Shown here one piece after another: positions 15,760 through 59,790 of a stretch of DNA of 61,818 nt. The stretch is taken from the sequence record MW460249.1. One strand, given 5' to 3'. This DNA comes from Pseudomonas phage Itty13. A model generated the notes under the pieces. That model searched no databases. It was not told the origin of the DNA and saw only the letters and a list, made by a program, of their open reading frames with translations. Made by a program: the position numbers and the translations under genes. How positions within the stretch are numbered: position 1 is the first letter of the stretch; the number at the start of each line of letters is the position of its first letter.

Positions 15760-15803
15760 TGCCGAATGCAAACAGTCTATGCGAAAGCGAAACAGCGGGC
15801 CAG
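15760..15803. promoter_or_regulatory. Operator motif pair (GTTTGCCGAATGCAAACAG and TGCGAAAGCGAAACAGCGG)
   Basis: Palindromic TTTGC-N5-GCAAAC element abutting the RBS of the GNAT-like gene. Confidence 0.45.
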
Positions 15804-16151
15804 CTATTTGCGGGCGAGGTCGGCCAGCGCGACGATAAGGGAGTTGTAGGCGTCTACCAGGGCGTTGAACTCGTCCATCGAAGGCGCGGCGGAGGCTCGC
15901 GGGATGCGTTTGAAGTTCAGCAGCAGCTCGCCCCGCCGAAGGGCGCTATCGCGGCGCTGATCCCCGCGCTCGCCGAGGAGGACCTGCAACTTCTCCAGCA
16001 GCAGCGCCTGCTCGCGAGCCCGCTGATTCAGGATGCGCTCGACGAGGGTTGTTATCTGCCGCTCGACCGCCAAAGTTAAACCGGCGGACCCTTGCGTCCG
16101 CCTGGACTCCTGGGCGCGCGCCCGCGCCGACTCGCTTCCGCCTCTCGCCAT
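15804..16151 (-). CDS. Hypothetical coiled-coil protein (115 aa)
   Basis: ATG with RBS GAGGT. High GC3. Lies in the minus-strand operon between the tail protein and the GNAT-like gene. Confidence 0.5.
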   Translation of the reverse strand: MARGGSESARARAQESRRTQGSAGLTLAVERQITTLVERILNQRAREQALLLEKLQVLLGERGDQRRDSALRRGELLLNFKRIPRASAAPSMDEFNALVDAYNSLIVALADLARK

Positions 16152-16158
16152 ACCTACC

Positions 16159-17910
16159 TCACGCCTGCGCCAGCTCTGCGCCCGTTCCGGCGATGAGCAC
16201 CTGGGTCACTGTCATGTCGCCCGTTACCTCCACTTCCCATTGCTGGGCCTTGAAGCCGGCCGGCAGCCGATCCATGCGGTTGACCCTGCTGATCGAGGCC
16301 ACCAGCTTCTTGTCGGCATAGACGTTGACCGAGCAGGTCTGGCTGACACTGGGGACGGGCTTCAGCTTGTCGCCGTTCACGGGATACACGTTGATGGCCG
16401 CCGCGTTCAGCGCGCCATCCAGAATGCCGGCGTTGAAGATCGCCTCGTTCTCCTGGCGAATTTTCTCGGCCTGCTCCTCAAGGGCGGCAAGCTCGTCGTC
16501 CGTGAGCTGCACTTCGGCCTCGATCAGGATCGCGCCCATGTTCAGCGGCTTGGGCAGGATGAAGGGCTTCGAGCGCCACGCCTGGATCTCGTTCGCCTCT
16601 CCCAGGGCGTCCCACTCGTACACGTCCGGCCCGATGATGTAGTAGAGCCGGCTTTCCGTGATGTCGTAGTAGAACGCCGTGGGGTATACGCCCGTGCGGG
16701 AGACGAACCCCTCACGCCCAGCCATGTCGAGGATGATGCTGCCGCGATATTCCTGGCTGCTGGAATCGGCGAAGCGGTAGGCGGCGAGGTATCGCCCGTC
16801 GTGCTGGCCGGAGATAATCGTCGCCGGGCTGAGCCTCTGCCATGCCTCGCGCGTGAAAAGCTCCTCGGTCGCCACGCGCACGCCGCCGGAGGATGCCAGC
16901 ACCAGCCCGTCGTTCGACGGATAGGCGATGGCATAGCCGAGGTCTTGGATGCCCTTGGCGTTGATGCACGGCAGGTTGAACTCCAGCTTCTCGGACTGCA
17001 TGTTCTCCGGCGCGGTGCCACTGACGATGTACGGGTTGCCCTTGGTCATCACCACGACGGTAGTGCCATAGGCGCCCAGGCCCACGATGTCATAGTCCAT
17101 CGTCAGGACGTACATCTCGGGCCACGCATGGGGCTGCCATGGCTCGCAGAAGTACAGGTCCTTGCCCATGAAGGCGGCCATCATGCCGTTGGGCAGCGCG
17201 ATCAGCCCGCGCAGGCCGTCCGGCGGCGCGTTGTAGTCCAGCGACGGAAGCGGCTCCTGAATGGCGGTGGACGGCAGGTTGTCGATGAAGTTCGCAGCGC
17301 TGACATCGCGCTCGGCGATGAAATAGAACTGCGTGCCGCTGGTGCTGGACTGGGAGCGGTAAATGCGCTGCTTCGTGATGTTCCGGCCGGCTGGCGCCGC
17401 CTGGAAGCCGCTGAGGGTCACGGTCTGCCCAGGGCTCCACTCGACCTCATTGCTGGCCGGGCACGGCTCCGACTCCTCGCCGAAGTCGGTCACGAACGTA
17501 TAGACGTAGAGGCGGGTTTCGCTGAGGTTCGGGCTAGTCGGCGTGCCGGACACGGCAGCGGTCAATGCCGCCGTTGGGCGCGGCACCGCGAGATTGTAGA
17601 CCGTGCCGTTGACGCGCATCTTGGGCGCGCCGTCGCCGGTGTAGTACAGGCGATCCTGGGCGACCGGGCCGGGCGCTGCATGCACCAGCCCTTGCCACGC
17701 AAGCCACTCGGTTCCGTGCTTGTAGATCGTGCCGTACCCGTTCGCTGGCGCCGTGCCGAAGCTATAGCGAAAGCGCGAACGCCTGATCGGCCGAAGATCG
17801 CCGCTCGTCAGGCGCGTATTGAACGCGCTCTGCGCTGCGTTCTCCGGCAGCAGGCGCGCGCTCAACTTGGGAACTTCGCCTGTGAAGCCGATCAGCTTGA
17901 TGATTGCCAT
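16159..17910 (-). CDS. Tail protein (583 aa; tail spike / tubular-type structural protein)
   Basis: Long ORF, protein-like, in the tail module downstream of the fibre genes. Confidence 0.7.
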   Translation of the reverse strand: MAIIKLIGFTGEVPKLSARLLPENAAQSAFNTRLTSGDLRPIRRSRFRYSFGTAPANGYGTIYKHGTEWLAWQGLVHAAPGPVAQDRLYYTGDGAPKMRVNGTVYNLAVPRPTAALTAAVSGTPTSPNLSETRLYVYTFVTDFGEESEPCPASNEVEWSPGQTVTLSGFQAAPAGRNITKQRIYRSQSSTSGTQFYFIAERDVSAANFIDNLPSTAIQEPLPSLDYNAPPDGLRGLIALPNGMMAAFMGKDLYFCEPWQPHAWPEMYVLTMDYDIVGLGAYGTTVVVMTKGNPYIVSGTAPENMQSEKLEFNLPCINAKGIQDLGYAIAYPSNDGLVLASSGGVRVATEELFTREAWQRLSPATIISGQHDGRYLAAYRFADSSSQEYRGSIILDMAGREGFVSRTGVYPTAFYYDITESRLYYIIGPDVYEWDALGEANEIQAWRSKPFILPKPLNMGAILIEAEVQLTDDELAALEEQAEKIRQENEAIFNAGILDGALNAAAINVYPVNGDKLKPVPSVSQTCSVNVYADKKLVASISRVNRMDRLPAGFKAQQWEVEVTGDMTVTQVLIAGTGAELAQA

Positions 17911-17949
17911 TGCTTTCCAGCCCTCTTGACTTTCCGCATTCTAGCTCTC

Positions 17950-19903: not shown

Positions 19904-20302
19904 TCAGACCGCCGGCAATGGGTATTGCTCGCGAATTTCGTTGTACCGCACGATGGCCGCGTCGCGCACAGCCTCCCAGCCTTCCTCGCCCATGAGCTGC
20001 ATCCGGCTCGCCTCGGCAAACATGCGGTCGGAGCCAGTGATCGGATCGGCGTAGGCCCTGGCGCGTAACGCCTCGATCTCCTCGCGCGTGTATACCGGCG
20101 CTGGCGGAGGCTCATATGCCGCGATCTCGCCGTGCTCGCCGGCCATGATCGCGGCGTAGATCAACCGGCCGGACTCCTCGACATCATCGGGAGAGGCGGT
20201 GAACGGAATCCAGCCGAACACTTCGTGCTCGATCTCGCAGTCAACGGAGCCGACCGCGTTGTACTTCGGGTTGCGCACTTGCATCAGGAAATCCTCAGCC
20301 AA
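19904..20302 (-). CDS. Tail fibre assembly protein (Tfa-like chaperone)
   Basis: 132 aa; pattern AYEPPPAP...EEIEALRARAYADPITGSDRMFAEASRMQL is typical of the Caudovirales Tfa family. Lies between the two fibre genes. Confidence 0.6.
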   Translation of the reverse strand: MAEDFLMQVRNPKYNAVGSVDCEIEHEVFGWIPFTASPDDVEESGRLIYAAIMAGEHGEIAAYEPPPAPVYTREEIEALRARAYADPITGSDRMFAEASRMQLMGEEGWEAVRDAAIVRYNEIREQYPLPAV

Positions 20303-21822
20303 ACAGTTGCCCCACCTGTGTTGCCATTACCCATGCATCGCCACGTTCCTGACGGTGCGCCGCCGCTTACAGCATTGTGAGACGTCCATCGAAGATTGGC
20401 GCCCGAGGTCGTGCCGCCAGCGCCAACGTTGGGGCCAGATGAGTTGAACAAATAGGCATAGGTTCCGATGGCGCCGATGCCCGCATCAGCGGTAAGGCTG
20501 GTTACATCTGCCGTCGTCAGCGACAGCGCGTGCGTGTGGCTCGTCGCGGTGACGCTGTTGCCGGTGCCAGTCGATATGGTGCCAGGAGTGCCCAGGGTGA
20601 GCGTGCGGTCGGCATTGAGCGCGCCGCCGCCCGTCAGGCCGTTGCCGGCGGTAAGCGTCGGCATGTTCCCGGTGTGATAAATCTCGACCGGACTCCGGAG
20701 GCCAATACTGTTCGCCCCCGCTGCGGCATGAAGGAAAAACCGGTCTTGGTACGGAAGGTTCGACAGCCGGAAGCCGGCGGTGGTCGATGAAAGCCTTACG
20801 TCGAGGAAAAAATGCCCGCCCGGCTCACCGGACCGATAGTAGAAACCGGTCGGGTTGCTTTGCCCGATACCAACGCTCGGACCAATCATGACGCCCCCGA
20901 GGCCAAACGCTCCCATCCTCAAGAGGCGATTGAGAGCGGTATCGCCTACTGACGCCTGCGCGTCCCACTGCGCCGCACTTCCGAGTTCCAACGTTTGGCG
21001 AACCGCTGCCGCGTTGGCATCGTCCAGAATGGTCCTGGCGAAGTCGGTGATCGTGAGGTTCACATCACTGAAGGCCTGTGACCACGGTCCCCAGGTGGTC
21101 GCATTGCTCTGAACTTGGAAGAAGAGATTCCCGTTCCGAATGAACATGCGCTGAGCTGCGCCATGGCCGCCGGAAGTATCAGACCACTGCCCGTTGACGA
21201 TAAGGACGCCGTACTGGTTCGTACCAGCGACGGCAGGAATATTCAGTCCATCGGAGCCGCCTCGCGCAAAGCCAGCCACCATACCCTTGCCGAATACATC
21301 GGTAGGGGTTCCGCTCTCTAGAACCGTCCCGCGCAGGTCCAGCATCTTGCCCAGGCCGAAAGCACCTACAGTCATCAGGCGCCCCGTCGCATTGTCCAGC
21401 GCGGTTGCCTGCTTCTGAGAGATAGCGCCGTCTTGCAGTTGGAGCCTATTACGCGCCGAAGCGGCATCAGGATCGCCGAGCATCCCCTGCATGTAGGCGG
21501 AGATGTCGCTGGTCTGCTGGAACTCCAACATAGCGGCGGCGGTGATCCGCAGCTCTACGCGGTCGCCGGCGTTGAACGCACGGGCCGTAGTGCCTTCCTG
21601 GCCGCGCGCCACGGTCAGCACGTCGCCGCTGCGAGCGGTGCAGCGCATGACCTCCATATTGCCGGCAGAGTCAATTACAGTGACCGGATACCATTGGCCC
21701 TGGCCCGCCGGCGGAAACGGGAACTTGCCACCATCTCCAGCCGAGACCGCGAACGATGTCGCAGCAGCGGAGATCGATGACGCAAGCCGGCTGGTCGCGT
21801 TGTTCTTGAGAAGGACGGCCAT
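20284..21822 (-). CDS. Tail fibre protein 1 (512 aa)
   Basis: Shares the conserved N-terminal attachment domain with fibre 2 (NNATSRLASSISAAAT...FPFPPAGQGQWYPVTVI...RCTARSGDVLTVARGQEGTTARAFNAGDRVELR). The C-terminal half is divergent and G/T/S-rich. Confidence 0.7.
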   Translation of the reverse strand: MAVLLKNNATSRLASSISAAATSFAVSAGDGGKFPFPPAGQGQWYPVTVIDSAGNMEVMRCTARSGDVLTVARGQEGTTARAFNAGDRVELRITAAAMLEFQQTSDISAYMQGMLGDPDAASARNRLQLQDGAISQKQATALDNATGRLMTVGAFGLGKMLDLRGTVLESGTPTDVFGKGMVAGFARGGSDGLNIPAVAGTNQYGVLIVNGQWSDTSGGHGAAQRMFIRNGNLFFQVQSNATTWGPWSQAFSDVNLTITDFARTILDDANAAAVRQTLELGSAAQWDAQASVGDTALNRLLRMGAFGLGGVMIGPSVGIGQSNPTGFYYRSGEPGGHFFLDVRLSSTTAGFRLSNLPYQDRFFLHAAAGANSIGLRSPVEIYHTGNMPTLTAGNGLTGGGALNADRTLTLGTPGTISTGTGNSVTATSHTHALSLTTADVTSLTADAGIGAIGTYAYLFNSSGPNVGAGGTTSGANLRWTSHNAVSGGAPSGTWRCMGNGNTGGATVWLRIS

Positions 21823-21825
21823 ACG

Positions 21826-22976: not shown

Positions 22977-22977
22977 G

Positions 22978-26914: not shown

Positions 26915-27020
26915 GCGCTGTGCCCTCATGCGGGTTGATGCTTGCACGTCGAAACCGCACGTCTTGCGCAGCGCCGTCCGTTCCGATTATCGGGTAAGTG
27001 ATTGCAAAACGCAAACACCT
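26915..27020 (-). promoter_or_regulatory. Capsid-gene promoter/leader: operator palindrome TTTGCGTTTTGCAA plus -10 GATAAT plus conserved leader shared with the erf upstream region
   Basis: On the gene strand the sequence GTGTTTGCGTTTTGCAATCACTTACCCGATAATCGGAACGGACGGCGC...CGCAAGACGTGC parallels 50297-50380. Confidence 0.5.
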
Positions 27021-27045
27021 ATGGCATGGCGACGGCCATAGGTGC
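27013..27045. other. 10-bp perfect inverted repeat (CACCTATGGC ... GCCATAGGTG) overlapping the stop of the CsrA-like gene
   Basis: Stem-loop with a 9-nt loop; it encodes the C-terminal PMAVAMP of the CsrA-like protein. Confidence 0.5.
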
Positions 27046-48749: not shown

Positions 48750-48765
48750 GGGGCTTTCCTCTTGG

Positions 48766-49600: not shown

Positions 49601-49680
49601 AATCGAAACGCCGATTCAAGAAAAGCAATTGCGAAATCGAAACAGGCGGTGCATAAGGGGCTCAGATTCTGGAGTGCAGT
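49560..49680. promoter_or_regulatory. Divergent immunity-region operator/promoter (two operator motifs: TTTGCATAATCGAAACGCC and TTGCGAAATCGAAACAGGCGG)
   Basis: Intergenic region between the Cro/CII-like gene (minus) and the CI-like gene (plus). A TTGCGA-17nt-CATAAG sigma70-like spacing is present. Confidence 0.5.
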
Positions 49681-50256
49681 ATGGTGAACAAGGCTTTCTT
49701 CGACGATCTGCTCGTCAGCAAGGGCATGTCGCTCCGCCAGTTGGCGAAGCGCATGGATGTCCTGCCGTCGCAGCTCTCGCTGACCTTCAACGGGAAGCGC
49801 CGCATGCAGATGGCCGAGGCTGTGCGCATATCGCAGCTCCTTGGCGCCCCACTCAACGAGGTCATGGCGGCGGCCGGCATCGTCGAGGCTACCGCTCGTC
49901 GCTGCAAGGTGGTCGGAGTGCTCAACGGCAACGGCTTCATCACGGAGGTGGAGAAGGACTCCATCGAGCGCGTGATGGTGCCAGACGGGATGCCGTCAGA
50001 GGTTTTCGCAGTCCAGGCCCGCACCGCCGAAAGCCCGCTCGGCTTCATGGATGGGTGGGTGATGTTCTGCAATGGCGAGCACGCCCCCGAGGAGCTTCTG
50101 GATCGGTATTGCGTAGTGAGGCTCGCCGACGGTCGGCAGCTCCCGGCAACCATCAGGCGCGGATACACTCCTGGGACCTTCAATCTCTTCGGCATCAATA
50201 CCCTGCTCAACGAGCGCGTGGCCTCTGCCTCGCCGGTCCTCATAACCCGCCACTGA
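49681..50256 (+). CDS. CI-like repressor (N-terminal HTH, C-terminal oligomerisation-type domain, 191 aa)
   Basis: N-terminal HTH MSLRQLAKRMDVLPSQLSLTFNGKRRMQMAEAVRISQLLGAPLNEV. Arranged divergently from the Cro-like gene. Confidence 0.55.
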   Translation: MVNKAFFDDLLVSKGMSLRQLAKRMDVLPSQLSLTFNGKRRMQMAEAVRISQLLGAPLNEVMAAAGIVEATARRCKVVGVLNGNGFITEVEKDSIERVMVPDGMPSEVFAVQARTAESPLGFMDGWVMFCNGEHAPEELLDRYCVVRLADGRQLPATIRRGYTPGTFNLFGINTLLNERVASASPVLITRH

Positions 50257-50296
50257 ATCAGCAAAGCGCACTCGATGCGCTTTCTATTTGCCAAAG

Positions 50297-50385
50297 GTGT
50301 TTGCAAAACGCAAACAGGTTGATCTACTATCGGAACGACGGCGCAAGACGCGCCCCAAATCAACCGACAATCCGAGGCAATCCCC
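50297..50385 (+). promoter_or_regulatory. erf promoter/leader: GTGTTTGCAAAACGCAAACAGG plus -10 TACTAT plus conserved leader TATCGGAACGACGGCGCAAGACGCGC
   Basis: TTGCAA-18nt-TACTAT spacing. The leader is shared with the capsid upstream region. Confidence 0.5.
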
Positions 50386-50386
50386 G

Positions 50387-51124
50387 ATGGAAGAAAACGC
50401 CGTTCCGGCGCGCGATCCCATGCCCGCGCTCTATGCTGCCCTGGCGAAAGCTCAAGGCGAGTTCAAGCCAATCGCCAAGAACCGCGATGTCACCATTCGC
50501 GGCCGCAACAAGCACACCCAGCAGGAAACCTCCTACCAGTTCCGCTATGCCGATCTGGAGACCATTCTGGCCGCCACCCGTCCGGCACTCGCCGCAAACG
50601 GTCTGGCCCTAGTGCAGCCGATCCGCGAGGACAACGGCGGCGTCTACCTCGACACGATGCTGATGCACTCCGATGGCGGCGTCATCACGTCGTCGATCCC
50701 GCTGCACGATCCGGTAGCCATGGCCGACCTGAAGCACTACGGCGCCGAAATCAGCTACCTGCGCCGCTATGCCGTGACCGCGATCCTCGGCGTCTCCGCC
50801 GATGACGATCTCGACGAGGACGGCCAGCAGCCGGAAGACGAGCCGGCCGGCAAGAGCAAGCCGCGCAGCCCGCGCAGTCCGCGCACCAACAAGCCGGGGC
50901 AGAAGCAGGCGCCGGCGCAGCAGCAGGTCGAGCAGCAGCCGGCCAACCCCGAGGCGCCGGCCGGTAGCGCAGGCCTGACCGATGGCATGATCAAGATGCT
51001 CCAGACGAAGCTGGCCGCCGCCGACAAGAGCGTCGAGGCGCTGCTGGAGCACTTCGGCGTCGCCGCGCTCGAAGACATCCCGCGCTCGCTCGTCAACGAC
51101 GCGATGGACTGGATCAAGTCGTGA
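50387..51124 (+). CDS. erf: ERF-family single-strand annealing recombinase (245 aa)
   Basis: ATG at 50387 with RBS GAGG. Pattern AKAQGEFKPIAKNRDVTI...YQFRYADLETILAATRPALAANGLALVQ matches the ERF core. A conserved promoter/leader lies upstream. Confidence 0.6.
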   Translation: MEENAVPARDPMPALYAALAKAQGEFKPIAKNRDVTIRGRNKHTQQETSYQFRYADLETILAATRPALAANGLALVQPIREDNGGVYLDTMLMHSDGGVITSSIPLHDPVAMADLKHYGAEISYLRRYAVTAILGVSADDDLDEDGQQPEDEPAGKSKPRSPRSPRTNKPGQKQAPAQQQVEQQPANPEAPAGSAGLTDGMIKMLQTKLAAADKSVEALLEHFGVAALEDIPRSLVNDAMDWIKS

Positions 51125-51705
51125 GCGGCCTGACGTTCGACGCCGTAAGCCACACCTACCGGCTGGACGGCAAGGTCATTCCCGGCGTCACCACGATCCT
51201 GAAGCCGCTGAATGACCTCAGCCACATCCCGCCGGAGGTACTGGCCCGCAAGGCAGCGCTCGGCACGGCCGTGCATACCGCCTGCGAGCAGGTCAACCAC
51301 GGAACGCTCGACTACGACGCGCTCGACGACGAGGCGCGCCCGTATGTGGACCAGTACCTGCTGTTTCTGGAGCAGAGCGGTTTCGAGGTTGTCCTGACCG
51401 AGCGTCGCGTCCTCAGCCGCAAGTATCGCTTCGCCGGCACCCTCGATCTGTGGGGCTACCTGAACGGGCGAACCACGCTCGCGGACATCAAGACCACGGC
51501 CGACGTGTACCCCGTGATGGGCTTGCAGACGGCCGCCTATGACCTCGCCCTGGAGGAGCAGGACGGGCTGAAAACCGATGACCGGGTGATCCTCCGCCTG
51601 GGCACCGATCAATACCGCTTTGAACCCATGACCGCCCGAGACGACCGCTCGGTCTTCCTCGCGGCCCTTACTTGCCACCATTGGAGACTCCGCAATGGCA
51701 ACTGA
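51121..51705 (+). CDS. PD-(D/E)XK-fold nuclease (recombination exonuclease partner of ERF, 194 aa)
   Basis: Motifs ...FAGTLDLWGY...LADIKTT... fit D...D/ExK. Start overlaps the ERF stop. Confidence 0.5.
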   Translation: MSGLTFDAVSHTYRLDGKVIPGVTTILKPLNDLSHIPPEVLARKAALGTAVHTACEQVNHGTLDYDALDDEARPYVDQYLLFLEQSGFEVVLTERRVLSRKYRFAGTLDLWGYLNGRTTLADIKTTADVYPVMGLQTAAYDLALEEQDGLKTDDRVILRLGTDQYRFEPMTARDDRSVFLAALTCHHWRLRNGN

Positions 51706-52408
51706 AATCAAGCTCCCCGCCATCATCACCGACAGCAAAGAGGCCATGGCCGCCGAGAAGGAGGCCATCAACTGGGAACAGGTGGCGAAGTCCTACGTCA
51801 TCGACTCCCCGGAGATGGCCGAGGCCGCCGCCGAGGACCTGAAGTCGATCAAGGCCAAGGCCAAGGACCTCGACAACCTGCGCACCACTCTGAAGAAGCC
51901 GAGCCTGGAAGAAGGCCGCGCCATCGACAAGCACTTCAAGCGGCCGCTCGACTTCCTGGCGAACGCCGAGAAGGTGCTGAAAGGCGCCATTGTGAACTTC
52001 CAGGCGGCCGAGCAGCGCCGCATCGAAGAAGAGCAGCGCCGGATCAACGCCGAGGCAGAGGCCGAGCGCCAGCGCCAGGAGGAGGAGCGCCAGGAGCGCA
52101 TCGCCGAGGCCGAGGCCGCCGGCGACCACGAAGCCGCCGCCGCGATCAGCGAGGAGCTGACCTTCGCGCCCGTCGTTCCCCAGGCCGAGCAGACCAAGCT
52201 CTCCGGCATCAGCACCCGCTCGGTCTGGAAAGGCCGCGTGACCGACAAGATGGCGCTGATCAAGGCCGTGGCCGAGGGCCGCGCCGACATGGCGCTCCTC
52301 GAAGTCAATCAGCAGGTCCTCGACGGGCTGGCGAAGGCGCTGAAGGGCAGCCTGAGCATTCCGGGCTGCGAGCCCTTCGAGGACAAGAGCGTGAGCGTCC
52401 GCGTATGA
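51695..52408 (+). CDS. Hypothetical coiled-coil protein, possibly Sipho_Gp157-like (237 aa)
   Basis: Central E/R/Q-rich coiled coil. Sits in the recombination module. Confidence 0.4.
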   Translation: MATEIKLPAIITDSKEAMAAEKEAINWEQVAKSYVIDSPEMAEAAAEDLKSIKAKAKDLDNLRTTLKKPSLEEGRAIDKHFKRPLDFLANAEKVLKGAIVNFQAAEQRRIEEEQRRINAEAEAERQRQEEERQERIAEAEAAGDHEAAAAISEELTFAPVVPQAEQTKLSGISTRSVWKGRVTDKMALIKAVAEGRADMALLEVNQQVLDGLAKALKGSLSIPGCEPFEDKSVSVRV

Positions 52409-52659
52409 CCGACGACCGCATGATCTCCGAGCAGGAGCTTGCGGTGCGCTGGGGCAAATCGGAGCGCACGATCAAGCGCTGGCGCAAGGAAGGAGGCGGC
52501 AAGGTGCCGCCCTCCTATCCGCTCGGGAAGAAAGGGGGCTTCGGCCAGGGCGTGAAATACCGCCTGTCCGAGGTGATCGAGTTTGAAGACCGCCAGAAGC
52601 AGGGAGCGCAATGCGAATCCACTGCCGATGCCGCAAGTGCGGCGCCCGAAAAACCCTGA
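52405..52659 (+). CDS. Small HTH DNA-binding protein (HTH_17/excisionase-like, 84 aa)
   Basis: ISEQELAVRWGKSERTIKRWRKEG is a typical HTH_17/MerR-like segment. Confidence 0.5.
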   Translation: MTDDRMISEQELAVRWGKSERTIKRWRKEGGGKVPPSYPLGKKGGFGQGVKYRLSEVIEFEDRQKQGAQCESTADAASAAPEKP

Positions 52660-52886
52660 GCCAGCGGCCGGAGGAGTACCTACGCCCCAGGCGCTGCCCG
52701 TGCGGCGGTACCTACCGGGTGGACAAGTGGGCGAACAGCCGGCCCTGGCGCGCCAAGAGCAAGCTCTGTCACTGCGATGGTGTCTGGTTCTCGATCCGTG
52801 GTGCGCCTCATCGGCGCGGAGGCGGGAGCTGCATCTACAACGAAAAACTCTACGAGGAAACGAACCATGAACCTGAGTCTCATTGA
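52611..52886 (+). CDS. Zinc-ribbon protein (91 aa, several CxxC)
   Basis: RBS AGGGAG then ATG. Motifs CRCRKCG, CPCGG, CHCDG. GC3 about 75%. Confidence 0.4.
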   Translation: MRIHCRCRKCGARKTLSQRPEEYLRPRRCPCGGTYRVDKWANSRPWRAKSKLCHCDGVWFSIRGAPHRRGGGSCIYNEKLYEETNHEPESH

Positions 52887-53319
52887 CCAACGCATCAACG
52901 AAGCCAAGACCGAAACCGAGTGCGCGCAATGGATCGAGCTGCGCAATGCACTGGTAAGCGCCGAAGAGGTCAAGATCAGCAGCGACATCCACCAGCAGAA
53001 CCGCCTGGAGCTGCTGCGCGAGGCCCGCCTGATGCGATTCAGCGCCGACATCAACACCGACATTTCCATGCAGGATAAGATCGATCCGCACATGGCCTGG
53101 GCGAACGATCTCGATCCGAAGAACCGCGACGAGTGGATACACGTCGTCGAGAAGATGATGCACATCGCCCTGAAGCATGGCCTGTGGGTCGATCCGTTCG
53201 CCGACATCGGCTTCCCGGCTGGCCGCTGGTGCGAAACCATGGATCGCCCGGCGGCGCGCTGCGGTTGCCCGGACTGCGGCTCCTCCCTGGTGCAGCAGGT
53301 GGAGGGCATGCCGGAATGA
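52867..53319 (+). CDS. Hypothetical protein with C-terminal CxxC (150 aa)
   Basis: RBS GAGGAAACG then ATG, within track ORF 52777..53319. Confidence 0.5.
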   Translation: MNLSLIDQRINEAKTETECAQWIELRNALVSAEEVKISSDIHQQNRLELLREARLMRFSADINTDISMQDKIDPHMAWANDLDPKNRDEWIHVVEKMMHIALKHGLWVDPFADIGFPAGRWCETMDRPAARCGCPDCGSSLVQQVEGMPE

Positions 53320-53702
53320 ATATCGCGGAGCGGAAAGCCTACGACGAGTGGTTGGAGAGCCTGAAGCCCGGCGACGCCGTGATCCTGAAATCCGGCTACG
53401 GCTTTCACAATCGAGATTGCGTCGCCAAGGTTGCCCGTGTCACTCCAACGCTGATCGTGCTCGAAGGTAATCGTCGCTTCCGCCGAAAGGACGGCCGCCA
53501 GTACGAGAGCCCGCCCAGGTGGGGCAGCAGCGACTCCCTGGAAAAGCCGACGAAGGAGGCCCGGCGTCGTGTCAGGCTGGAGAACGCCCGCGACACGCTT
53601 CGGAACCTGAAACCTGAGCAACTGAACGACGCCCAGGTCCTCGCCATGGTCAGGGCGATGAACGATCACGCCGACAAGGCCGGCGAAGGCGGTGCCGTGT
53701 GA
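53316..53702 (+). CDS. Hypothetical protein (128 aa)
   Basis: RBS GGAGGG then ATG, within track ORF 53133..53702. Confidence 0.5.
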   Translation: MNIAERKAYDEWLESLKPGDAVILKSGYGFHNRDCVAKVARVTPTLIVLEGNRRFRRKDGRQYESPPRWGSSDSLEKPTKEARRRVRLENARDTLRNLKPEQLNDAQVLAMVRAMNDHADKAGEGGAV

Positions 53703-54580
53703 GCCGGGCGTGGGGTCATGACGAGCTGGCCCACGACCTCGCACAGAGCCTCCGGGTGAATCCCGAGCACATCGTTTGGGAGAACATGCAGATGGGGCCT
53801 TCGGGCTCCATCCGCCCGGACGTGTACCTGCTGAAGAAACGCTACTCGACCTTCGCGCCCGTGACCTACGAGGTGAAGGTCAGCGTCAGCGACTTCCGAA
53901 GCGATGTCACCTCCGGCAAGTGGCAGGGCTACCTGAAGTTCTCCAGCGGCGTGATTTTCGCGGTGCCCGCCGGGCTGATCAACAAGGCCGACGTGCCCGC
54001 AGGCTGCGGCCTGATCGTTCGCCACGACGAGGTATGGCGCACCGTCAAGCGGCCGACCATGCAGGTGATCGAAACGCTTCCGCATGAAGCCTGGATGAAG
54101 CTGGTGATCGACGGCATCGAGCGCGCCGTAAAGCAGCGCGACGAGCCCAGGCTACGCCACGCGCCGAACTCTTGGACGGTGCAGCAGATGCTGCGGAAGA
54201 AGGTCGGCGGCGAGATCGCCGAGCTGATCGCCCAGGCTATGAGATCGCGCGAGGGCGTAGAGAACGCGATCCGGCACGCCGAGGAACAGCGCCAGGAGAT
54301 CAACGCCGGAACACACCGCGAGCTGAAGCGGGCGCGCGAGCGCATCGAGGCCGAAAGCGCTTACCTGTCCGCCGAGCTGCGCGATCTGGCCAAAGCGCTT
54401 GGCCTGCCAGCGGAAACCACGACGAGCGAGCTGTGTGCCGCCGTCCGGCAGGCCGCCCGGCGCCTTGCCGAAGACGCCGAGGTCCAACGACTGCGCAGGC
54501 TGTTCGAGCGCATCCAAGAAGCCACCGCCGATGGCGTGCTCCCGCTGCCCGGCGAACAACAAGAGGCAATTCCCGCATGA
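53699..54580 (+). CDS. Nuclease-fold (MmcB / PD-(D/E)XK-like) protein with C-terminal coiled coil (293 aa, GTG start)
   Basis: N-terminal DVYLLKKRYSTFAPVTYEVKVSVSDF... suggests a restriction-endonuclease-like fold. The GTG start overlaps the upstream stop. Confidence 0.4.
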   Translation: MSRAWGHDELAHDLAQSLRVNPEHIVWENMQMGPSGSIRPDVYLLKKRYSTFAPVTYEVKVSVSDFRSDVTSGKWQGYLKFSSGVIFAVPAGLINKADVPAGCGLIVRHDEVWRTVKRPTMQVIETLPHEAWMKLVIDGIERAVKQRDEPRLRHAPNSWTVQQMLRKKVGGEIAELIAQAMRSREGVENAIRHAEEQRQEINAGTHRELKRARERIEAESAYLSAELRDLAKALGLPAETTTSELCAAVRQAARRLAEDAEVQRLRRLFERIQEATADGVLPLPGEQQEAIPA

Positions 54581-55299
54581 AAATCGACGAAACCAGCATC
54601 TGCCAGGGCACCAACTGCGGCACCACGACGGGCGATCACTCGCCGGAATGCCTTGCCGAAGCGGCCGCATCCCAGGGCTGGGAGCTGAAGCCGGAAGACC
54701 TCGGCGAGGTGGAGGTGGTGGCCTATCTCGCCACTGCCGAACATCCGAAGCACGGTCAGCCGCACAAGGCGATCAACTACTTCAAGGACCCGCACGACGC
54801 ACAGGTGGCGCACTGGCGTGAGCGCGGCTGCACAGTGACGGAAGACCAGCTTATGACCGTCGCCCTGCACGGGCGCCGGATGGCGGCGCTCGATTCCTCC
54901 TGGCGCCGGCATTTGGTCCACCCATCCGAGCGCTACTGGGAAAATCGCTACCGCGACGAGGCGAAGGAGAACGAGCGCCTGCGCGCCCTGATCAACAGCC
55001 CCGAGCTGCATGAATTCGCCAAGGGCGTGGTGCTGGAAGCGGCGCACCAGCGCGAGCGCTGGGGCAGCGAGCAAGACGCAGGGAAGCAGCCGGCCGACTG
55101 GTTCTGGCTGATCGGCTACCTCGCGCAGAAGGCCATGATGGCGCAGCTCGCCGGCGACCCCGAGAAGGCCTTGCACCACTGCATCAGCACAGCGGCCGCG
55201 ATGAACAACTGGCACGCCAGCATCCTGGGCGCCAACACCAGCATGCGCCCTGGGCTGCCCGAGGAAGCGCTGCCGGCCGGCGAAGGGGGTGCAGTGTGA
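54577..55299 (+). CDS. Hypothetical protein (240 aa)
   Basis: ATG within track ORF 54172..55299; overlaps the upstream stop (ATGA). Confidence 0.45.
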   Translation: MKIDETSICQGTNCGTTTGDHSPECLAEAAASQGWELKPEDLGEVEVVAYLATAEHPKHGQPHKAINYFKDPHDAQVAHWRERGCTVTEDQLMTVALHGRRMAALDSSWRRHLVHPSERYWENRYRDEAKENERLRALINSPELHEFAKGVVLEAAHQRERWGSEQDAGKQPADWFWLIGYLAQKAMMAQLAGDPEKALHHCISTAAAMNNWHASILGANTSMRPGLPEEALPAGEGGAV

Positions 55300-55799
55300 G
55301 CGCCATCATCAGCGAGTGCGGCCGCTACCGCTACCGCCTGGAGCGCGAGACCGGCGTGGCCGGGCCGGTCGTCGCCTTCATCGGCGTGAACCCGTCCACC
55401 GCCGACGCCACCGAGGACGACGCCACCATTCGCAAGATGGTCGGCTTCGCCCGCCGGTGGGGCTACAGCCGGGTCATCGTCGGCAACCTGTTCGCCTACC
55501 GCGCGACCGACGTGCGGGAGTTGCGCCGCGCGTACCTCGATCCATTCGAGACCCGCCCGCTGTTCGCCATCGAGTCGCGCTACCTGCTCGACATCATCCG
55601 AAACGCCGATCTGCTGGTGCCGTGCTGGGGCGACCGAGGGAAAATCCCGAAGGTGCTGCGCGACCGACCGAGCGACGTGCTCCACCTGCTGCGGCACCCA
55701 GCGAAGCCGATTTGCCACCTGGGCCTGACCAAGCGCGGCGATCCCAAGCACCCGCTCATGCTCGGCTACGACACCCAGCTCGTCGAGTGGAGGGCCTGA
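55296..55799 (+). CDS. DUF1643-family protein (167 aa, GTG start)
   Basis: Pattern RYRYRLERE...AFIGVNPSTADATEDDATIRKMVGFARRWGYSRVIVGNLFAYRATD...HPLML matches DUF1643. Confidence 0.55.
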   Translation: MSAIISECGRYRYRLERETGVAGPVVAFIGVNPSTADATEDDATIRKMVGFARRWGYSRVIVGNLFAYRATDVRELRRAYLDPFETRPLFAIESRYLLDIIRNADLLVPCWGDRGKIPKVLRDRPSDVLHLLRHPAKPICHLGLTKRGDPKHPLMLGYDTQLVEWRA

Positions 55800-55802
55800 T
55801 CC

Positions 55803-55940
55803 ATGGCTACCGAAAGCAAATCCTGCTGGCTCGTCTGCCTTCCTGGCCGGAAGCCGTTCTTCATGGTCGGCGCCAAGATGGACTTTGACGAGGCGCTGGC
55901 CGCCGCTCGGGTGATCTGGCCGGAGGCCGAAGTCAAATGA
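55803..55940 (+). CDS. Hypothetical small protein (45 aa)
   Basis: RBS GGAGGG then ATG; product MATESKSCWLVCLPGRKPFFMVGAKMDFDEALAAARVIWPEAEVK. Confidence 0.35.
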   Translation: MATESKSCWLVCLPGRKPFFMVGAKMDFDEALAAARVIWPEAEVK

Positions 55941-55970
55941 ACATCCTACGAAGCTGGTCGAGGTGAAGGC

Positions 55971-56129
55971 ATGAAAAATAGACTGGACGAAATTAACCGG
56001 AGCATACTGCTCAGCGGGGCCATTGCCTGGGGATCGGGATTGATCGCCGCAATGGTCATCGGCGGCGGCGCGCTGGCCCTCCCTCTGATCAAGAGCCTGA
56101 TCGGATGGCAGTGGGGGTGCCATTTCTAA
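55971..56129 (+). CDS. Small hydrophobic membrane peptide (52 aa) with low-GC 5' end
   Basis: RBS GAGGTGA then ATG; product MKNRLDEINRSILLSGAIAWGSGLIAAMVIGGGALALPLIKSLIGWQWGCHF. Local GC drops sharply. Lies just before alpA and int. Confidence 0.4.
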   Translation: MKNRLDEINRSILLSGAIAWGSGLIAAMVIGGGALALPLIKSLIGWQWGCHF

Positions 56130-56171
56130 TCCTGCTGCGCCCCACCTTGTCCCTTTCCCTCCTGTTTGCGT

Positions 56172-56198
56172 CGTGCTATCCCGTGTTTCGATTTCGCA
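56172..56198 (+). promoter_or_regulatory. Operator motif (GTGTTTCGATTTCGCAAACAGG) fused to the alpA RBS
   Basis: The core 16-mer TGTTTCGATTTCGCAA is identical to the reverse complement of the site at ~49634. Confidence 0.45.
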
Positions 56199-56212
56199 AA
56201 CAGGAGGGCTCC

Positions 56213-56446
56213 TTGTCGTCTGCTCATTCCATCCAGTCCGGTGATCGCCTGCTCCGCCTGCGCGACGTGAAGACGAAGACCGGGCTGGGCTCCTCTACGA
56301 TCTACCGCTACATCCAGGCCGGCACCTTCCCGGCGCCGGTCAAGATCGGCGGCTTTACCGCGCGCTGGCGCGAGTCTCAGGTCGAGGCGTGGATTGACGC
56401 CTTGCCGCGCCTGCGGCCGGACACGACCTCGTCCAGCGGCATCTGA
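56213..56446 (+). CDS. alpA-like: AlpA-family excisionase / transcriptional regulator (77 aa, TTG start)
   Basis: Pattern LLRLRDVKTKTGLGSSTIYRYIQAGTFPAPVKIGGFTARWRESQVEAWI matches the Phage_AlpA family. RBS AGGAGGG abuts an operator motif. 3' end is convergent with int. Confidence 0.65.
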   Translation: MSSAHSIQSGDRLLRLRDVKTKTGLGSSTIYRYIQAGTFPAPVKIGGFTARWRESQVEAWIDALPRLRPDTTSSSGI

Positions 56447-57639
56447 TCGACGATCAGCAGGTCGGCCCATTCCTGGGCCAGCTCGCGGCGGCGCGCCAGA
56501 TGCGCCGCGCGATTGTACGCCGCCTCGACTTTGTCCTTGGGCGTGTGCGCCAGCATCAGGTCGATGATGCGGCTGTCCTGGGGGTGGCGCTCGTTCATCA
56601 CCGTCGAGAACGTTGACCGCCAGCCGTGGGGTACATGGCGGTGGTGATACCCCGCCCGGTTCAGCAGATACCCCATGGCGTTCTCGCTCATCGGCTTGTG
56701 CGCGTGCCGGCCGTTCGGGAACACGAACGGGCAGCGGCCGGTCAGCGGGCGCAGCGCCTCGATCACCTCGCGGGCCTGCCGCGACAGCGGGACGAGGTGG
56801 TCGCGGGCCTCGTCGTCCTTCAGGTGCAGGGCCAGCTTCATCCGCGCCGCCGGCACGGTCCACAGGTCCTCGACATCCTCCAGCTCCTCCCATGGCGTCG
56901 TCGCCAGGGTGCCGGGGCGCAGCGCGGTCAGCGCCAGCAGCCGGATCGCCAGCTTCGTCGCCGGGTGCGCGCCCTCGCGGTCCACCTTGCGGATGATTTC
57001 GCGGGCCTGTTCGAGGTCGGTGATGGCCGGCTGCCGGCCCTTCTTCAGCGGGGCCATGGCGCCCTGGACGATGGCGGCCGGGTCGTTCTCGCCTCGGCCG
57101 GAGGCGATGGCGTAGACGAACACGGCGGACATCCGCTGCCGGATGCGCCGCGCGGTCTCCACCGCCGGCCGCTTCTCGATGGAGCGCAGGACCTTCAGCA
57201 CCATGGGCGCGGTGATCGCCTTGATCGGCAGGGCGCCCAGCTCGGGGAACACGTCGCGCTCCAGGCTGTGCAGCACGTCATAGCAGTGAACGGGCGTCCA
57301 CTTCGCCTTGTTGGCCTCGTGCCACTCGCGGGCGACCGCCTCGAAGGTGGTGCCGGCGTCGAAGATCGCGGCGGCGGCGCGCTCCTTCTTCTCCACGGAC
57401 GGGTCGCGGCCGTCGCGCAGGATCGCGCGGGCGTCGTCGCGCTTCTCGCGGGCCTGGGCCAGGGAGACCTCGGGGTATGGGCCGAAGGAAAGCAGCTTCT
57501 CCTTGCCGGCGAAGCGGTACTTCATGCGCCACAGCTTCGAGCCGTTGGGATTGAGCTGGAGGTAGAGGCCTGCGCTATCGGTCAGCTTGCGGGGCTTGTC
57601 GGTGGCCTTGGCGCGGCGAATCTCGGCATCGGTCAGCAT
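56377..57639 (-). CDS. int: Tyrosine integrase, P4-type (420 aa)
   Basis: N-terminal arm-binding region (LTDAEIRRAKATDKPRKLTDSAGLYLQLNPNGSKLWRMKYRFAGKEKLLSFGPYPEVSLAQAR) and C-terminal catalytic region (...HGWRSTFST...LAHTPKDKVEAAYNRA). Confidence 0.8.
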   Translation of the reverse strand: MLTDAEIRRAKATDKPRKLTDSAGLYLQLNPNGSKLWRMKYRFAGKEKLLSFGPYPEVSLAQAREKRDDARAILRDGRDPSVEKKERAAAAIFDAGTTFEAVAREWHEANKAKWTPVHCYDVLHSLERDVFPELGALPIKAITAPMVLKVLRSIEKRPAVETARRIRQRMSAVFVYAIASGRGENDPAAIVQGAMAPLKKGRQPAITDLEQAREIIRKVDREGAHPATKLAIRLLALTALRPGTLATTPWEELEDVEDLWTVPAARMKLALHLKDDEARDHLVPLSRQAREVIEALRPLTGRCPFVFPNGRHAHKPMSENAMGYLLNRAGYHHRHVPHGWRSTFSTVMNERHPQDSRIIDLMLAHTPKDKVEAAYNRAAHLARRRELAQEWADLLIVDQMPLDEVVSGRRRGKASIHAST

Positions 57640-57944
57640 TCGATTTCCTCTTGGGTTGCGATACCCCCAAGGATCAAATTCGAGTCCCCGTTTCTACCCC
57701 CACCGATGTGGGGTAGCGTGGGAAAGGCCGGGACCGGATAGGACAGGGAAAGACGCCTAACCCATTGAATTATCAACAGGATTTGAACGGCGCGGGAAAG
57801 GTTGGGAAAGGAAAATGGCGGAGACGGAGCCCCTCGAATAGAACGGCCAAGCTGCTGGAACTGCTACGCTTTTTCGGCGCTACCCCGCGCCGATACCCGG
57901 AAATCTACCCCCAGGCGCGAAGGCCTGGGGTTTTCCACAGTTTC

Positions 57945-58481
57945 CTACTCCCGCTGAAGCGCTTCGCACTGCCGGGCGTAGTCTTGCAGGTAGGCTATCT
58001 TCGCCCGGTCTTCGAGGATTCCTCCTCGGGCGGCAAGAACGTTGCGTCCAGCAGCTCCAGAGAGTTCGACGGTGGTGTCATCGCCCAGGCCGCCGGCGGC
58101 GGCATTCTGGCCGCCTTGGTTGCCACCGGCTGGAGCTGGACAGCGGGCTTGGACGCGCAGCCGGCGCTCGCCAGCGGCAACAGCATCAGCAAGACGAGCG
58201 TTCTCGGCTTGGGCATTCTTCAGGTCCTCGGTGTGCTTGCGGTCGGAGTCGGCCAGCCGCTGCTCGGCGGCCTGCTGCTTTTCCAAGGCGCCGGCGGTCG
58301 CCCGCTGCGCCTCGTCGGTGATGCGCTTCAGTTCGGTCGCGTGGTCGGTCTGGAGCTGGCTGTAGGCCCGGTCCTTGTCGGCGAGCTGCTCGCCGTAGCG
58401 CCAGCCCTGCGCGGTGCCGGCGGCGATGGCGCCGGCCAGGAATGAGGAGAGGGTGAGAATGGCGTAGCCCTTGAGCGTCAC
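57945..58481 (-). CDS. Rz: Rz-like i-spanin (178 aa, GTG start)
   Basis: N-terminal TM (YAILTLSSFLAGAIAAG) and a periplasmic coiled coil (...AEQRLADSDRKHTEDLKNAQAENARLADAV...) typical of the Rz family. Rz1 is embedded in another frame. Confidence 0.7.
   Translation of the reverse strand: MTLKGYAILTLSSFLAGAIAAGTAQGWRYGEQLADKDRAYSQLQTDHATELKRITDEAQRATAGALEKQQAAEQRLADSDRKHTEDLKNAQAENARLADAVAAGERRLRVQARCPAPAGGNQGGQNAAAGGLGDDTTVELSGAAGRNVLAARGGILEDRAKIAYLQDYARQCEALQRE
57995..58216 (-). CDS. Rz1: Rz1-like o-spanin lipoprotein embedded in Rz (73 aa)
   Basis: Signal peptide plus lipobox LLMLLPLASAGC, Pro-rich mature part. Lies wholly inside Rz in a different frame. Confidence 0.65.
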   Translation of the reverse strand: MPKPRTLVLLMLLPLASAGCASKPAVQLQPVATKAARMPPPAAWAMTPPSNSLELLDATFLPPEEESSKTGRR

Positions 58482-58759
58482 TTCGCCTGCTCCGTGGCCT
58501 TCTCGACCGCCGTTTCCGCCTTGTTGGCGGCCTCGGTCGCTTTGGCAATGCAGATGTGAATGGACTCGTCCTTGGCGGCCAGCGCCTCGGCGTATGCGGC
58601 ATTCAGGGCGGTGATCCGCTGTTCAGCGGAGCCACGCTCCCACATCATCCCCAGCGGTAGCCCGATGGCGACGCCGGCGGCGAACAGCACGCCGACGATG
58701 CCCCAGGTTTCCGCGCTGCGGAAGCCGACCTTGCAGTTAGTGCTGCGACCGTCGTTCAT
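58478..58759 (-). CDS. Single-TM membrane protein with helical periplasmic domain (93 aa; holin/antiholin candidate)
   Basis: ATG at 58759 (track ORF starts at 58795). TM segment WGIVGVLFAAGVAIGLPLGMMW. Stop overlaps the Rz start. Confidence 0.45.
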   Translation of the reverse strand: MNDGRSTNCKVGFRSAETWGIVGVLFAAGVAIGLPLGMMWERGSAEQRITALNAAYAEALAAKDESIHICIAKATEAANKAETAVEKATEQAK

Positions 58760-59102
58760 CTCCAGTCCTCTCCAGCGCCCCCCGCAGTGTGACAATTTCC
58801 TGCTTCATCTGTTCGATGCGCGACTCCAGCATCTTCTGGCTGGTTTCCAGGGCGCGGACGCTGCCGATCAGCTCGCCTACCTCCCGGTAGAGCTTGTTGC
58901 GCTCGGCTGTGACCTCTTGCAGGCTCAGGCGCAGCTCCTTGTTCTCCTCTTGGAGCCGGTCGATCATGTCCACTTCGGCCCTGGCGTTGGCGATCTCCGC
59001 CGCGTCCTTGGAGAGCTTCGTGCGGAGCCACAGGCCGCCCATCACCAGACTGGTCAGGCCGGCGCCGATCATCCCCCACAGGGTTTGCGGTTGCTCGTCC
59101 AT
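58737..59102 (-). CDS. Single-TM membrane protein with long coiled coil (121 aa; holin/lysis-regulator candidate)
   Basis: ATG at 59102 overlaps the endolysin stop (TGATG). TM segment LWGMIGAGLTSLVMGGLWL followed by a heptad-rich C-terminus. Confidence 0.45.
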   Translation of the reverse strand: MDEQPQTLWGMIGAGLTSLVMGGLWLRTKLSKDAAEIANARAEVDMIDRLQEENKELRLSLQEVTAERNKLYREVGELIGSVRALETSQKMLESRIEQMKQEIVTLRGALERTGDERRSQH

Positions 59103-59701
59103 CAGGCAATGCCCCCTCCCGCGCTCTTGAAGGCGGCCGCCAGCTTCGTGTCGTACTGGTTCGCCGCGTAGTTCGGGCCGTTGTAGAGAAGCGCGAAGGT
59201 CTTCCAGTCCTGCCGCTTCAGCGCCTCGTGCAGCTTCGGGTTCGCCTTGACGAACCGGACGAAGGCGTCGAGCTGGTCGCCCTCGCTGTAGTACATGGCG
59301 TTGATGAAGGCCTGGAGCGTGGGATAGCCGAGCGTTTCCCAGTGGTAGCCCATGATCTGGAACAGACCCCAGCTCGCCGACTCCAGGGCGCACTCCCGGT
59401 CGATCAGCTTGGCGGCGCGGTCCATGCGGTCAGGCTGCGCGGACTCCTTGCCGTAGGCGCCGGGCTTCGGGTTGATGATGTCGGGGTAGCGCTCGACCAG
59501 GGCGTCGGCGCGGGTGAAGCCGTACTTGGCCTTGGTGCGCCGGTACATGATGTGGCGCTCGAACAGGACGACCGGGCGGCCATCCGGCAGGAAGCCGTCG
59601 CCACGGCTTTCGACAGCGCAGACCGCTTTCACGGCTGCGACCGGCACCGACAGAGAGTCGGCGGCTTTCTGAATATCGGGATCGGTGAGTTTCTTGCGCA
59701 C
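59102..59701 (-). CDS. Endolysin, N-acetylmuramidase family (199 aa from GTG at 59701)
   Basis: RBS GGAGGC then GTG. Catalytic region VAAVKAVCAVESRGDGF...WGLFQIMGYHWETLGY...FVRFVKANPKLHEALKRQDWKTFALLYNGPNYAAN matches the phage muramidase family. No TM segment. Confidence 0.7.
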   Translation of the reverse strand: MRKKLTDPDIQKAADSLSVPVAAVKAVCAVESRGDGFLPDGRPVVLFERHIMYRRTKAKYGFTRADALVERYPDIINPKPGAYGKESAQPDRMDRAAKLIDRECALESASWGLFQIMGYHWETLGYPTLQAFINAMYYSEGDQLDAFVRFVKANPKLHEALKRQDWKTFALLYNGPNYAANQYDTKLAAAFKSAGGGIA

Positions 59702-59767
59702 AGACGTGCCTCCAGTTTCCACGGGGGGCGGCACGTCATGCGCTGCTGATCACATTCTATACAGCAT

Positions 59768-59790
59768 ATTGCCATTATCGAAACAGTGAA
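59768..59790. promoter_or_regulatory. Operator motif (TTGCCATTATCGAAACAGTG) upstream of the endolysin gene
   Basis: About 70 nt upstream of the lysis cassette; followed on the gene strand by TATAGAAT. Confidence 0.4.

Follow-up and report, generated by a model that had tools for sequence, protein, structure and literature searches.

In the CI/Cro switch of the lambda type (lambda, 434 and P22), cI and cro are divergent genes and the operators are palindromes of 17–19 bp that overlap −35 and −10 boxes. These operators are graded in strength, a weak one being found at the cI promoter, tandem sites lie about two helical turns apart, and the repressor consists of an N-terminal helix-turn-helix (HTH) domain and a lambda-like C-terminal oligomerisation domain. 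Phage P1 has one immunity repressor, C1, with 22 operators scattered over its genome (PMC8546580). Repressors of the L5 type recognize more than 20 asymmetric 13-mer sites genome-wide, located in promoters and in short intergenic spaces within operons, and shut down the entire prophage (PMC9283540). RsaL dimers occupy a 15-bp palindrome that overlaps a promoter and is read via Q38 and R43 (PMC5314801). The element described here is a 19-bp inverted repeat which recurs in the DNA of Pseudomonas phage Itty13 (sequence record MW460249.1), of which a stretch of 61,818 nucleotides, the window, was analysed over its full length. Judged from the sequence, this repeat is probably the operator of the phage's own immunity repressor, embedded in phage promoters of the sigma-70 type, a reading to which we assign a probability of about 0.6.

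Each of the features listed for the lambda-type switch has its likeness in Itty13. Unlike in lambda, the candidate operators of Itty13, about 11 per genome, are also located on capsid, lysis, packaging-side and accessory promoters and inside operons. The protein in the Cro position is RsaL-like and not Cro-like, the catalytic Ser/Lys positions in the C-terminal domain of the CI-like protein are not conserved, and the sites show no sign of a Q/N antitermination cascade (no search was aimed at one). A single immunity repressor with many dispersed operators would be shared with P1, but the P1 operator is an asymmetric 17-mer, ATTGCTCTAATAAATTT, and C1 is unrelated in sequence. The late genes of P1 need the activator Lpa and are not known to have an operator of their own. 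The Itty13 sites that lack a −10 box and abut a ribosome-binding site resemble in position the stoperators bound by gp71 in mycobacteriophages L5 and Bxb1. This likeness is positional only: the L5 sites are asymmetric, bound by a monomer and functional in one orientation only, whereas the Itty13 sites are 19-bp palindromes, implying a dimer, and hence lack the asymmetry and orientation along transcription by which a stoperator is defined. P1 C1 and the L5-type repressors are the nearest precedents for dispersed immunity operators, and the scheme amounts to a lambda-type switch enlarged to genome scale. Distinct from these precedents are 19-bp palindromes that double as −35 box and spacer of phage promoters, those of the structural and lysis genes included.

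Alignment of all copies in the window gave a 19-bp unit, TGTTTSS-N5-SSAAACA. The consensus of a matrix of relatives' sites is the imperfect inverted repeat YGTTTSS-RWWWY-SSAAACR. With up to three mismatches, five matches to TGTTTCGATTTCGCAA were found in the window (0.20 expected from shuffles) and eight to GTGTTTGC-N5-GCAAACAGG (0.12 expected). The regular expression TTGC-N5/6-SSAAAC matched 11 times, and ten of these matches were intergenic, with intergenic DNA representing 11.4% of the window according to codon-usage gene calls made in this analysis. To avoid circularity, the scoring matrix was built from 49 distinct sites of relatives only and the window sites were left out. With this matrix, 11 matches of at least 18 bits, the threshold for a strong site, were obtained against a mean of 0.01 in order-2 Markov simulations. 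They start at positions 8726, 15756, 26999, 31147, 34327, 45713, 49592, 49626, 50298, 56184 and 59767. Nine are fully intergenic (binomial p 1.4e-7), so that the scan gave an intergenic excess instead of the equal density in coding DNA which the initial annotation had named as the outcome speaking against an operator. Weaker matches were located in coding DNA at 44964 and 60874. Perfect TGTTT-N9-AAACA arms are present in two sites only, and in an enumeration of exact dyads (5-mer arms, gaps 0–14), dominated by GC-rich dyads, the motif was not ranked.

The initial annotation had listed 11 copies, restricted to intergenic regions. All 11 were present, nine by pattern searches and those at 31147 and 34327 by reading the sequence; the former was found again by the regular expression and the matrices, the latter by the matrices only. 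Ten of them are strong, while the copy placed at 15783 (15776–15794) is weak with 9.3 bits. The exact 16-mer reported to be shared by two copies was recovered at 49629–49644 (minus strand) and 56184–56199 (plus strand). Restriction to intergenic DNA applies to the nine sites mentioned above and fails for 45713 and 8726, both of which lie inside open reading frames (ORFs).

In the immunity region, a gene for a CI-like repressor of 191 amino acids (49681–50256, plus strand) diverges from a gene in the Cro position, encoding 117 amino acids from a GTG at 49558 (49205–49558, minus strand). Two sites are located in the spacer. O1 (49592–49610, TGTTTGCATAATCGAAACG, 29.8 bits) has a conserved ATAAT centre and is kept in all close relatives; read toward cro, on the minus strand, this centre gives GATTAT, which is likely the −10 of the cro-side promoter. 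O2 (49626–49644, plus strand, CAATTGCGAAATCGAAACA, 19.2 bits) lies on the cI promoter, where it provides the −35 box TTGCGA and is followed by a weak −10, CATAAG (49652–49657). The left arm of O2 is degenerate in the window and likewise in all relatives examined, where it reads CAATTGC, CGATTGC or TGATTGC. Such weakness is to be expected of a low-affinity autoregulatory operator, which O2 would then be. The spacer between O1 and O2 (49611–49632) holds a conserved stretch, TCAAGAAAAGCAATTGC, containing the palindrome GCAATTGC, common to L003 and L009 and in part to L005 among the related loci. The −35 of the cro-side promoter, or a distinct site for Cro, may be located here.

On the other side of cI, the putative operator on the early-right promoter P_erf (50298–50316, plus strand, TGTTTGCAAAACGCAAACA) is a perfect palindrome with the top score of 31 bits. 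Its −35 is TTGCAA and the −10, TACTAT (50325–50330), starts 8 nt past the site, followed by CGGAAC and a leader hairpin. A terminator-like hairpin with a T-run precedes the promoter (50264–50288). The site is conserved in L003, L005, L006, L010, L011 and Serratia phage Parlo, and TAATAT or TATCAT takes the place of the −10 in relatives.

The same geometry recurs elsewhere. At six sites, motif positions 4–9 (TTGCNN or TTCGAT) form a sigma-70-like −35 box, 17–18 nt upstream of a hexamer in the −10 position. Besides P_erf and P_cI, the latter with a gap of 7 nt between site and hexamer, these are the promoters of the capsid gene, P_capsid (site 26999–27017, minus strand, TGTTTGCGTTTTGCAATCA; GATAAT at 26986–26991, gap 7 nt), and of the lysis cassette, P_lysis (59767–59785, minus strand, TGTTTCGATAATGGCAATA; TAGAAT at 59754–59759, gap 7 nt), and two further sites. 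One of these is in the divergent region between terS and the plus-strand block (34327–34345, plus strand, TGTTTCGATTGTAAAAACG; TATAGT at 34353–34358, 7 nt downstream), and its orthologue in Parlo has TAAAAT 7 nt past the site. The other, a probable case (31147–31165, minus strand, TGTTGCTAAAATCGAAACG), lies between terL and the DUF7940, methyltransferase and portal genes and is followed after 7 nt by a weak −10, AAATAG, and then by CGGAAC, as at P_erf and P_capsid. A strict −10 test was passed by four of the 11 sites (TACTAT, GATAAT, TAGAAT and TATAGT) against 0.16 expected (p 2e-5); the sites of P_cI (CATAAG) and 31147 (AAATAG) have the same layout and failed it. A consensus promoter scanner run over 45000–61818 returned P_lysis, on the motif, as its single promoter-like site. 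A common element at a fixed distance past the right half, as for a sigma-factor −10, was not found across all sites. At 34357, a GTG described earlier as fused to the motif is doubtful as a start codon because it overlaps the good −10-like hexamer TATAGT.

Relative to the inferred transcription start, the site spans about −38 to −20, a position which points to repression rather than activation. The initial annotation had left open a site for a single dimeric phage regulator or a class of phage promoters, and the data support a combination of both. The promoter side is carried by the left half acting as −35 at six sites with the −10-position hexamer fixed 7–8 nt past the site, the regulator side by a palindrome of two half-sites without covariation, kept at orthologous promoters across very different hosts. 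A promoter class alone would mean that the host RNA polymerase, by itself or together with a phage factor such as the protein encoded at 48766–49221, reads an extended −35 and spacer and that no repressor is involved. The fixed distance to the −10 agrees with this, as do the better conservation of the left half than of the right when the sites are read along transcription and the weak matches of the 48766–49221 protein to the SutA RNA-polymerase-binding domain and sigma-70 region 4. The right half, SSAAACA, is nevertheless a strongly conserved mirror of the left, for which polymerase or sigma contact has no need, and several sites have no −10 and lie directly on a ribosome-binding site. Moreover, the P_cI site is weakened in all relatives, as for an autoregulatory operator, and the 48766–49221 protein has no detectable homologue in the immunity region of Parlo, which has the same motif. 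A promoter class without a repressor is consequently judged improbable.

Transcript starts at P_erf, P_capsid and P_lysis, the three strongest of these promoters, are supported by a conserved leader stem-loop, GCGCAAGACGYGC, which begins 11 nt past each of the three −10 boxes (P_erf, 50341–50353, plus strand, the hairpin GGCGCAAGACGCGCC being at about 50339–50355; P_capsid, 26957–26969, and P_lysis, 59731–59743, both minus strand). The stem-loop has the form GGCGC-AAGA-CGYGCC and recurs in relatives' capsid leaders, the distant ones having an AGGA loop. Genome-wide, the pattern with up to two mismatches was not above chance (16 matches, 15 expected), and the meaningful copies are the three with 0–1 mismatches at the promoters. 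The stem-loop could stabilise the 5′ end or be recognised by the CsrA of the phage.

Directly upstream of the capsid promoter, a CsrA homologue of 61 amino acids is encoded (27019–27204, minus strand; Pfam CsrA, 29.8 bits). Its stop codon lies inside a hairpin (27019–27043) that adjoins the capsid operator. The same placement of csrA upstream of the capsid gene was observed in Parlo, DC1 and Bcep22.

The sites at alpA, the acyltransferase gene and 45713 directly abut a Shine-Dalgarno sequence, an arrangement conserved in relatives. The first (56184–56202, plus strand, TGTTTCGATTTCGCAAACA) precedes the TTG start of alpA at 56213. A tandem half-site unit (56163–56181, plus strand, TGTTTGC-GTCGT-GCTATCC), of which only the left half is good, is located 21 bp upstream, and its pattern TGTTTSS + N + TGMTA is conserved in relatives. 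In L006, L010 and L011 a clear terminator is found upstream of the alpA tandem, so a promoter must lie within the tandem. The second (15756–15774, minus strand) is 8 nt upstream of the start codon (15747) of the acyl-CoA N-acyltransferase gene, and its weak tandem partner (15776–15794, minus strand, 9.3 bits) is offset by 20 bp, as in the same tandem of Parlo. At both 15756 and 56184, the presence of a weak or half-site partner 20–21 bp upstream is conserved in relatives. The third (45713–45731, minus strand) is situated inside the early-left operon, within the final 45 nt of the ORF 45689–46156 (minus strand) and 20 nt before an ATG at 45692, with no −10; orthologues are present in L003, L006, L010 and Parlo. 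This place had been named the oxygenase operon. The gene that follows encodes a 247-amino-acid protein without a Pfam match, and one phage record labels a homologous stretch 2OG-Fe(II) oxygenase. The strong site missing from the earlier list (8726–8744, minus strand, CGTTTCGCTTTCCGAAACA) is a near-perfect copy of 20.3 bits in a giant DarB-like ORF. It is preceded by a CCCGAG context, as are the operon-internal sites, and no counterpart in the giant gene of Parlo reached 14 bits.

The fusion of motif and ribosome-binding site had been taken as a sign that initiation of translation is controlled. Among 55 distinct sites, the outer pairs of the repeat were complementary in nearly all (2/18 in 50, 3/17 in 45 and 4/16 in 55), while the inner pairs were so in 25 (6/14) and 16 (7/13), with about 43% expected by chance for independent halves. 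Mixed halves, such as TGTTTGC...CGAAACA, are common. As the inner pairs do not covary, the contact appears to be with DNA and control of translation initiation is not supported; the pattern fits two half-sites for a dimeric protein and not a selected stem. For the same lack of covariation, an RNA hairpin, a terminator and a CsrA site were rejected. Iterons or methylation sites do not fit, since the sites are single, dispersed at promoters and 19 bp long. Host regulators of the LexA, CRP/FNR or Fis type were discarded too, the motif tracking phage clades and not hosts. The spacing of the LexA, CRP/FNR and Fis consensus sequences is incompatible with the motif.

It is accordingly very improbable that the repeat acts in RNA, as a hairpin beside the ribosome-binding site for translation or processing or as a CsrA target, or that a global regulator of the host binds it. 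Three sites do abut a Shine-Dalgarno sequence and the phage does encode a CsrA, but many sites are unable to form a hairpin, half of them are upstream of the inferred transcription start, and GGA is absent from the loops. The motif is furthermore identical in phages of Serratia and of Rhizobiales-type hosts and drifts between phage clades, which argues for a phage-encoded binder rather than a host factor.

Across Parlo, L003, L005, L006 and L009–L013, orthologous places of the motif are the cI–cro spacer with two sites, the gaps from cI to erf and from csrA to the capsid gene, the divergent terS region, and the acyltransferase, alpA and lysis genes. The motif recurs at orthologous places in Parlo, in an Agrobacterium prophage and in metagenomic relatives. 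Homologues of the CI-like protein are encoded by numerous contigs some 60 kb long and by a genome of Agrobacterium tumefaciens. Three of these loci, with 72, 69 and 56% identity in CI, share the gene order RsaL-like HTH, CI-like, Erf, YqaJ with the window, and have the motif twice in the cI–cro spacer and once between cI and erf, at the positions that it takes in the window. Parlo, with a CI identity of 52%, yielded 13 matrix matches, 11 of them intergenic by its deposited annotation. Two of them lie in the cI–cro spacer, with others between cI and erf, between csrA and the capsid gene, at the acyltransferase gene, in the divergent terS region, at an AlpA-like gene, at the lysis cassette and at three junctions within operons. 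The capsid layout of site, 7 nt and GATAAT or CATAAT was found in eight relatives, the viral contigs L036–L042, one of which is BcepMigl, and Parlo. In distant clades the architecture is kept and the half-sites have drifted to TGGTTSS, TGGTCCG or TGGTACG, with TGGT and GTTT halves mixed in Bcep22; seed-based searches for the operators of clade B were too noisy for quantitative use. No description of the repeat in Bcep22-like phages was found in the literature searched, the founding Bcep22 paper being outside that search, and the words promoter and operator are absent from the JC1 phage paper.

Three proteins had been put forward as the binder, and the CI-like protein is favoured from the comparison of sequences. 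It combines an N-terminal HTH_3 domain (Pfam, E 4.3e-5, 23.9 bits with a cut-off of 23) with a lambda-repressor-like C-terminal domain and matches PHROG transcriptional repressor families. In Foldseek, its AlphaFold2 model (predicted local distance difference test score 90.5) was matched by lambda repressor over both domains. The C-terminal domain gave 7jvt, 2ho0, 2hnf, 8gmu and 1kca with E 2e-7 to 8e-3, and the N-terminal domain matched the HTH domains of lambda repressor, HigA and ClgR. Pfam Peptidase_S24 did not match the protein. Homologues are present in the Bcep22-like phages examined. The preference for CI follows from its recognition helix, which is near-constant within clades sharing the operator while the Cro helix is very different between such clades (for example L014 versus L033), from the dispersed sites of this type at loci without a detectable RsaL-like gene within 10 kb of cI, and from the task itself, since shutting the capsid and lysis promoters belongs to a lysogeny repressor.

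The protein in the Cro position carries an RsaL-like HTH_92 domain (Pfam), has homologues of 117 amino acids and gave a weak match to PDB 5j2y (E 0.078). This protein could be the principal binder at the dispersed sites, by itself or jointly with CI, as a general turn-down or temporal regulator in lytic growth. Its HTH is of a dimeric type, related to that of RsaL, whose palindromic operator overlaps a promoter (PMC5314801); its gene adjoins cI in most family members; and its recognition helix, too, varies between the TGTT and TGGT clades. On the other hand, the operator of RsaL at lasI of Pseudomonas aeruginosa is 15 bp long, TATGnAAnTTnCATA, and differs from the 19-bp Itty13 motif with its TGTTT and AAACA arms, and in the window protein G and A take the place of Q38 and R43, the residues by which RsaL contacts bases. 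The helix differences and the persistence of sites without an RsaL-like gene, mentioned above for CI, also tell against Cro, and repression of capsid and lysis genes during lytic growth makes little sense. As main binder, the RsaL-like protein is thus possible but rather unlikely.

The third candidate, presumably the Fis-type protein of the initial annotation, is a 151-amino-acid HTH protein encoded after cro (48766–49221, minus strand), with the weak SutA and sigma-70 region 4/HTH matches given above. Its occurrence is limited to the closest relatives (L003, L005, L006, L010 and L011). By tblastn no homologue was found in the 17.6-kb immunity region of Parlo (L012), and the protein is dissimilar to the Parlo gene product at the same position. 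It is an unlikely binder, because no counterpart was detected there although Parlo has the same motif.

Under the operator reading, a dimer of the CI-like protein would bind each site across about −38 to −20 and exclude RNA polymerase. One protein would in this way keep the early-left, early-right, head, packaging-side and lysis promoters all closed in a lysogen. The strong O1 would cover the cro-side promoter, while O2 with its weak left half would cover P_cI and lead to negative autoregulation, and the RsaL-like Cro probably competes at both. Tandem partners 20–21 bp away at some sites may allow cooperative binding via the lambda-like C-terminal domain. The sites on ribosome-binding sites within operons that have no −10 (45713, 15756, 56184 and perhaps 8726) may be extra weak promoters or roadblocks to read-through.

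Several points weigh against this reading. No credible −10 was found at 45713, 15756, 56184 and 8726, and for this reason the term promoter operator does not fit all copies. The choice of binder rests on comparison and the loci were selected via CI homology, which biases it. A strict link of the CI residues before the recognition helix (PSQ or HSQ) to the half-site (TGTT or TGGT) was tried and rejected, as Bcep22 and BcepMigl have HSQ yet mixed half-sites. The catalytic Ser-Lys dyad is not kept in the CI-like protein: in a provisional, by-eye alignment to lambda, the Lys position is Arg in the window and R, K, T or Q in homologues, and the Ser position is S or T. With Arg replacing the catalytic Lys, RecA-driven self-cleavage is doubtful, which suggests a non-cleavable repressor with another route of induction. 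Some relatives are reported to be lytic phages and yet keep the system, so that the protein could also regulate timing instead of repressing in lysogeny.

A wider reading takes in the whole Bcep22-like lineage, with hosts from Enterobacterales to Burkholderiales and Rhizobiales-type bacteria. All transcription would run from host sigma-70 promoters sharing one palindromic operator, without a dedicated late activator or antiterminator. One non-cleavable repressor of the lambda fold at about a dozen sites, perhaps with looping, would set lysogeny, plasmid-like carriage or lytic timing, and the sites without −10 next to ribosome-binding sites would be symmetric roadblocks to elongation. We regard this extension as speculative and unlikely to hold as a whole.

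The window has a G+C content of 65.5%. Giant minus-strand ORFs are present at both ends, one running from 12328 to 2 and leaving at the left end, the other from 61816 to 59885 and entering from the right end. Joined as a circle, these two (2–12328 and 59885–61816, minus strand) form one DarB-like gene of about 4750 codons, and the window is therefore read as a circular permutation of a complete phage genome, by its sequence that of a Bcep22-like podophage. The region of the head, portal and terminase genes has 73–76% DNA identity to Erwinia phage PEp14 and Burkholderia phages DC1, Bcep22 and BcepMigl, and an IMG/VR contig of 62.4 kb is 99% identical to the window at protein level. Genes identified were those for TerS, acyl-CoA N-acyltransferase, Erf, RdgC, AlpA, a tyrosine integrase, a muramidase and the CsrA homologue. 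Two stretches of about 1.3–1.5 kb (20285–21825 and 34657–35997) contain no confident gene according to the codon-usage model, the first with a weak motif-like match at 20319. No tRNA was found anywhere in the window; Bcep22 and BcepMigl have a tRNA-Ser adjoining cro. In the 305-bp gap upstream of the integrase gene (57640–57944) no copy of the operator is present, and attP and the int promoter probably lie there.

The interest of these results is moderate and lies mainly in mapping the regulation of phages that matter for applications. Promoters, operators and a probable master repressor are now proposed in testable form for the Bcep22-like phages, a group that includes Burkholderia, Ralstonia, Erwinia, Serratia and Klebsiella phages under consideration for therapy and biocontrol. 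The lifestyle of several of them is unclear, with unstable lysogeny or a plasmid prophage. The promoter and leader-hairpin module, conserved across distant hosts, could be a portable cassette for regulated expression, and the half-site variants suggest a way to predict immunity groups. With an operator on nearly every promoter, removal of the repressor suggests itself as a route to obligately lytic derivatives.

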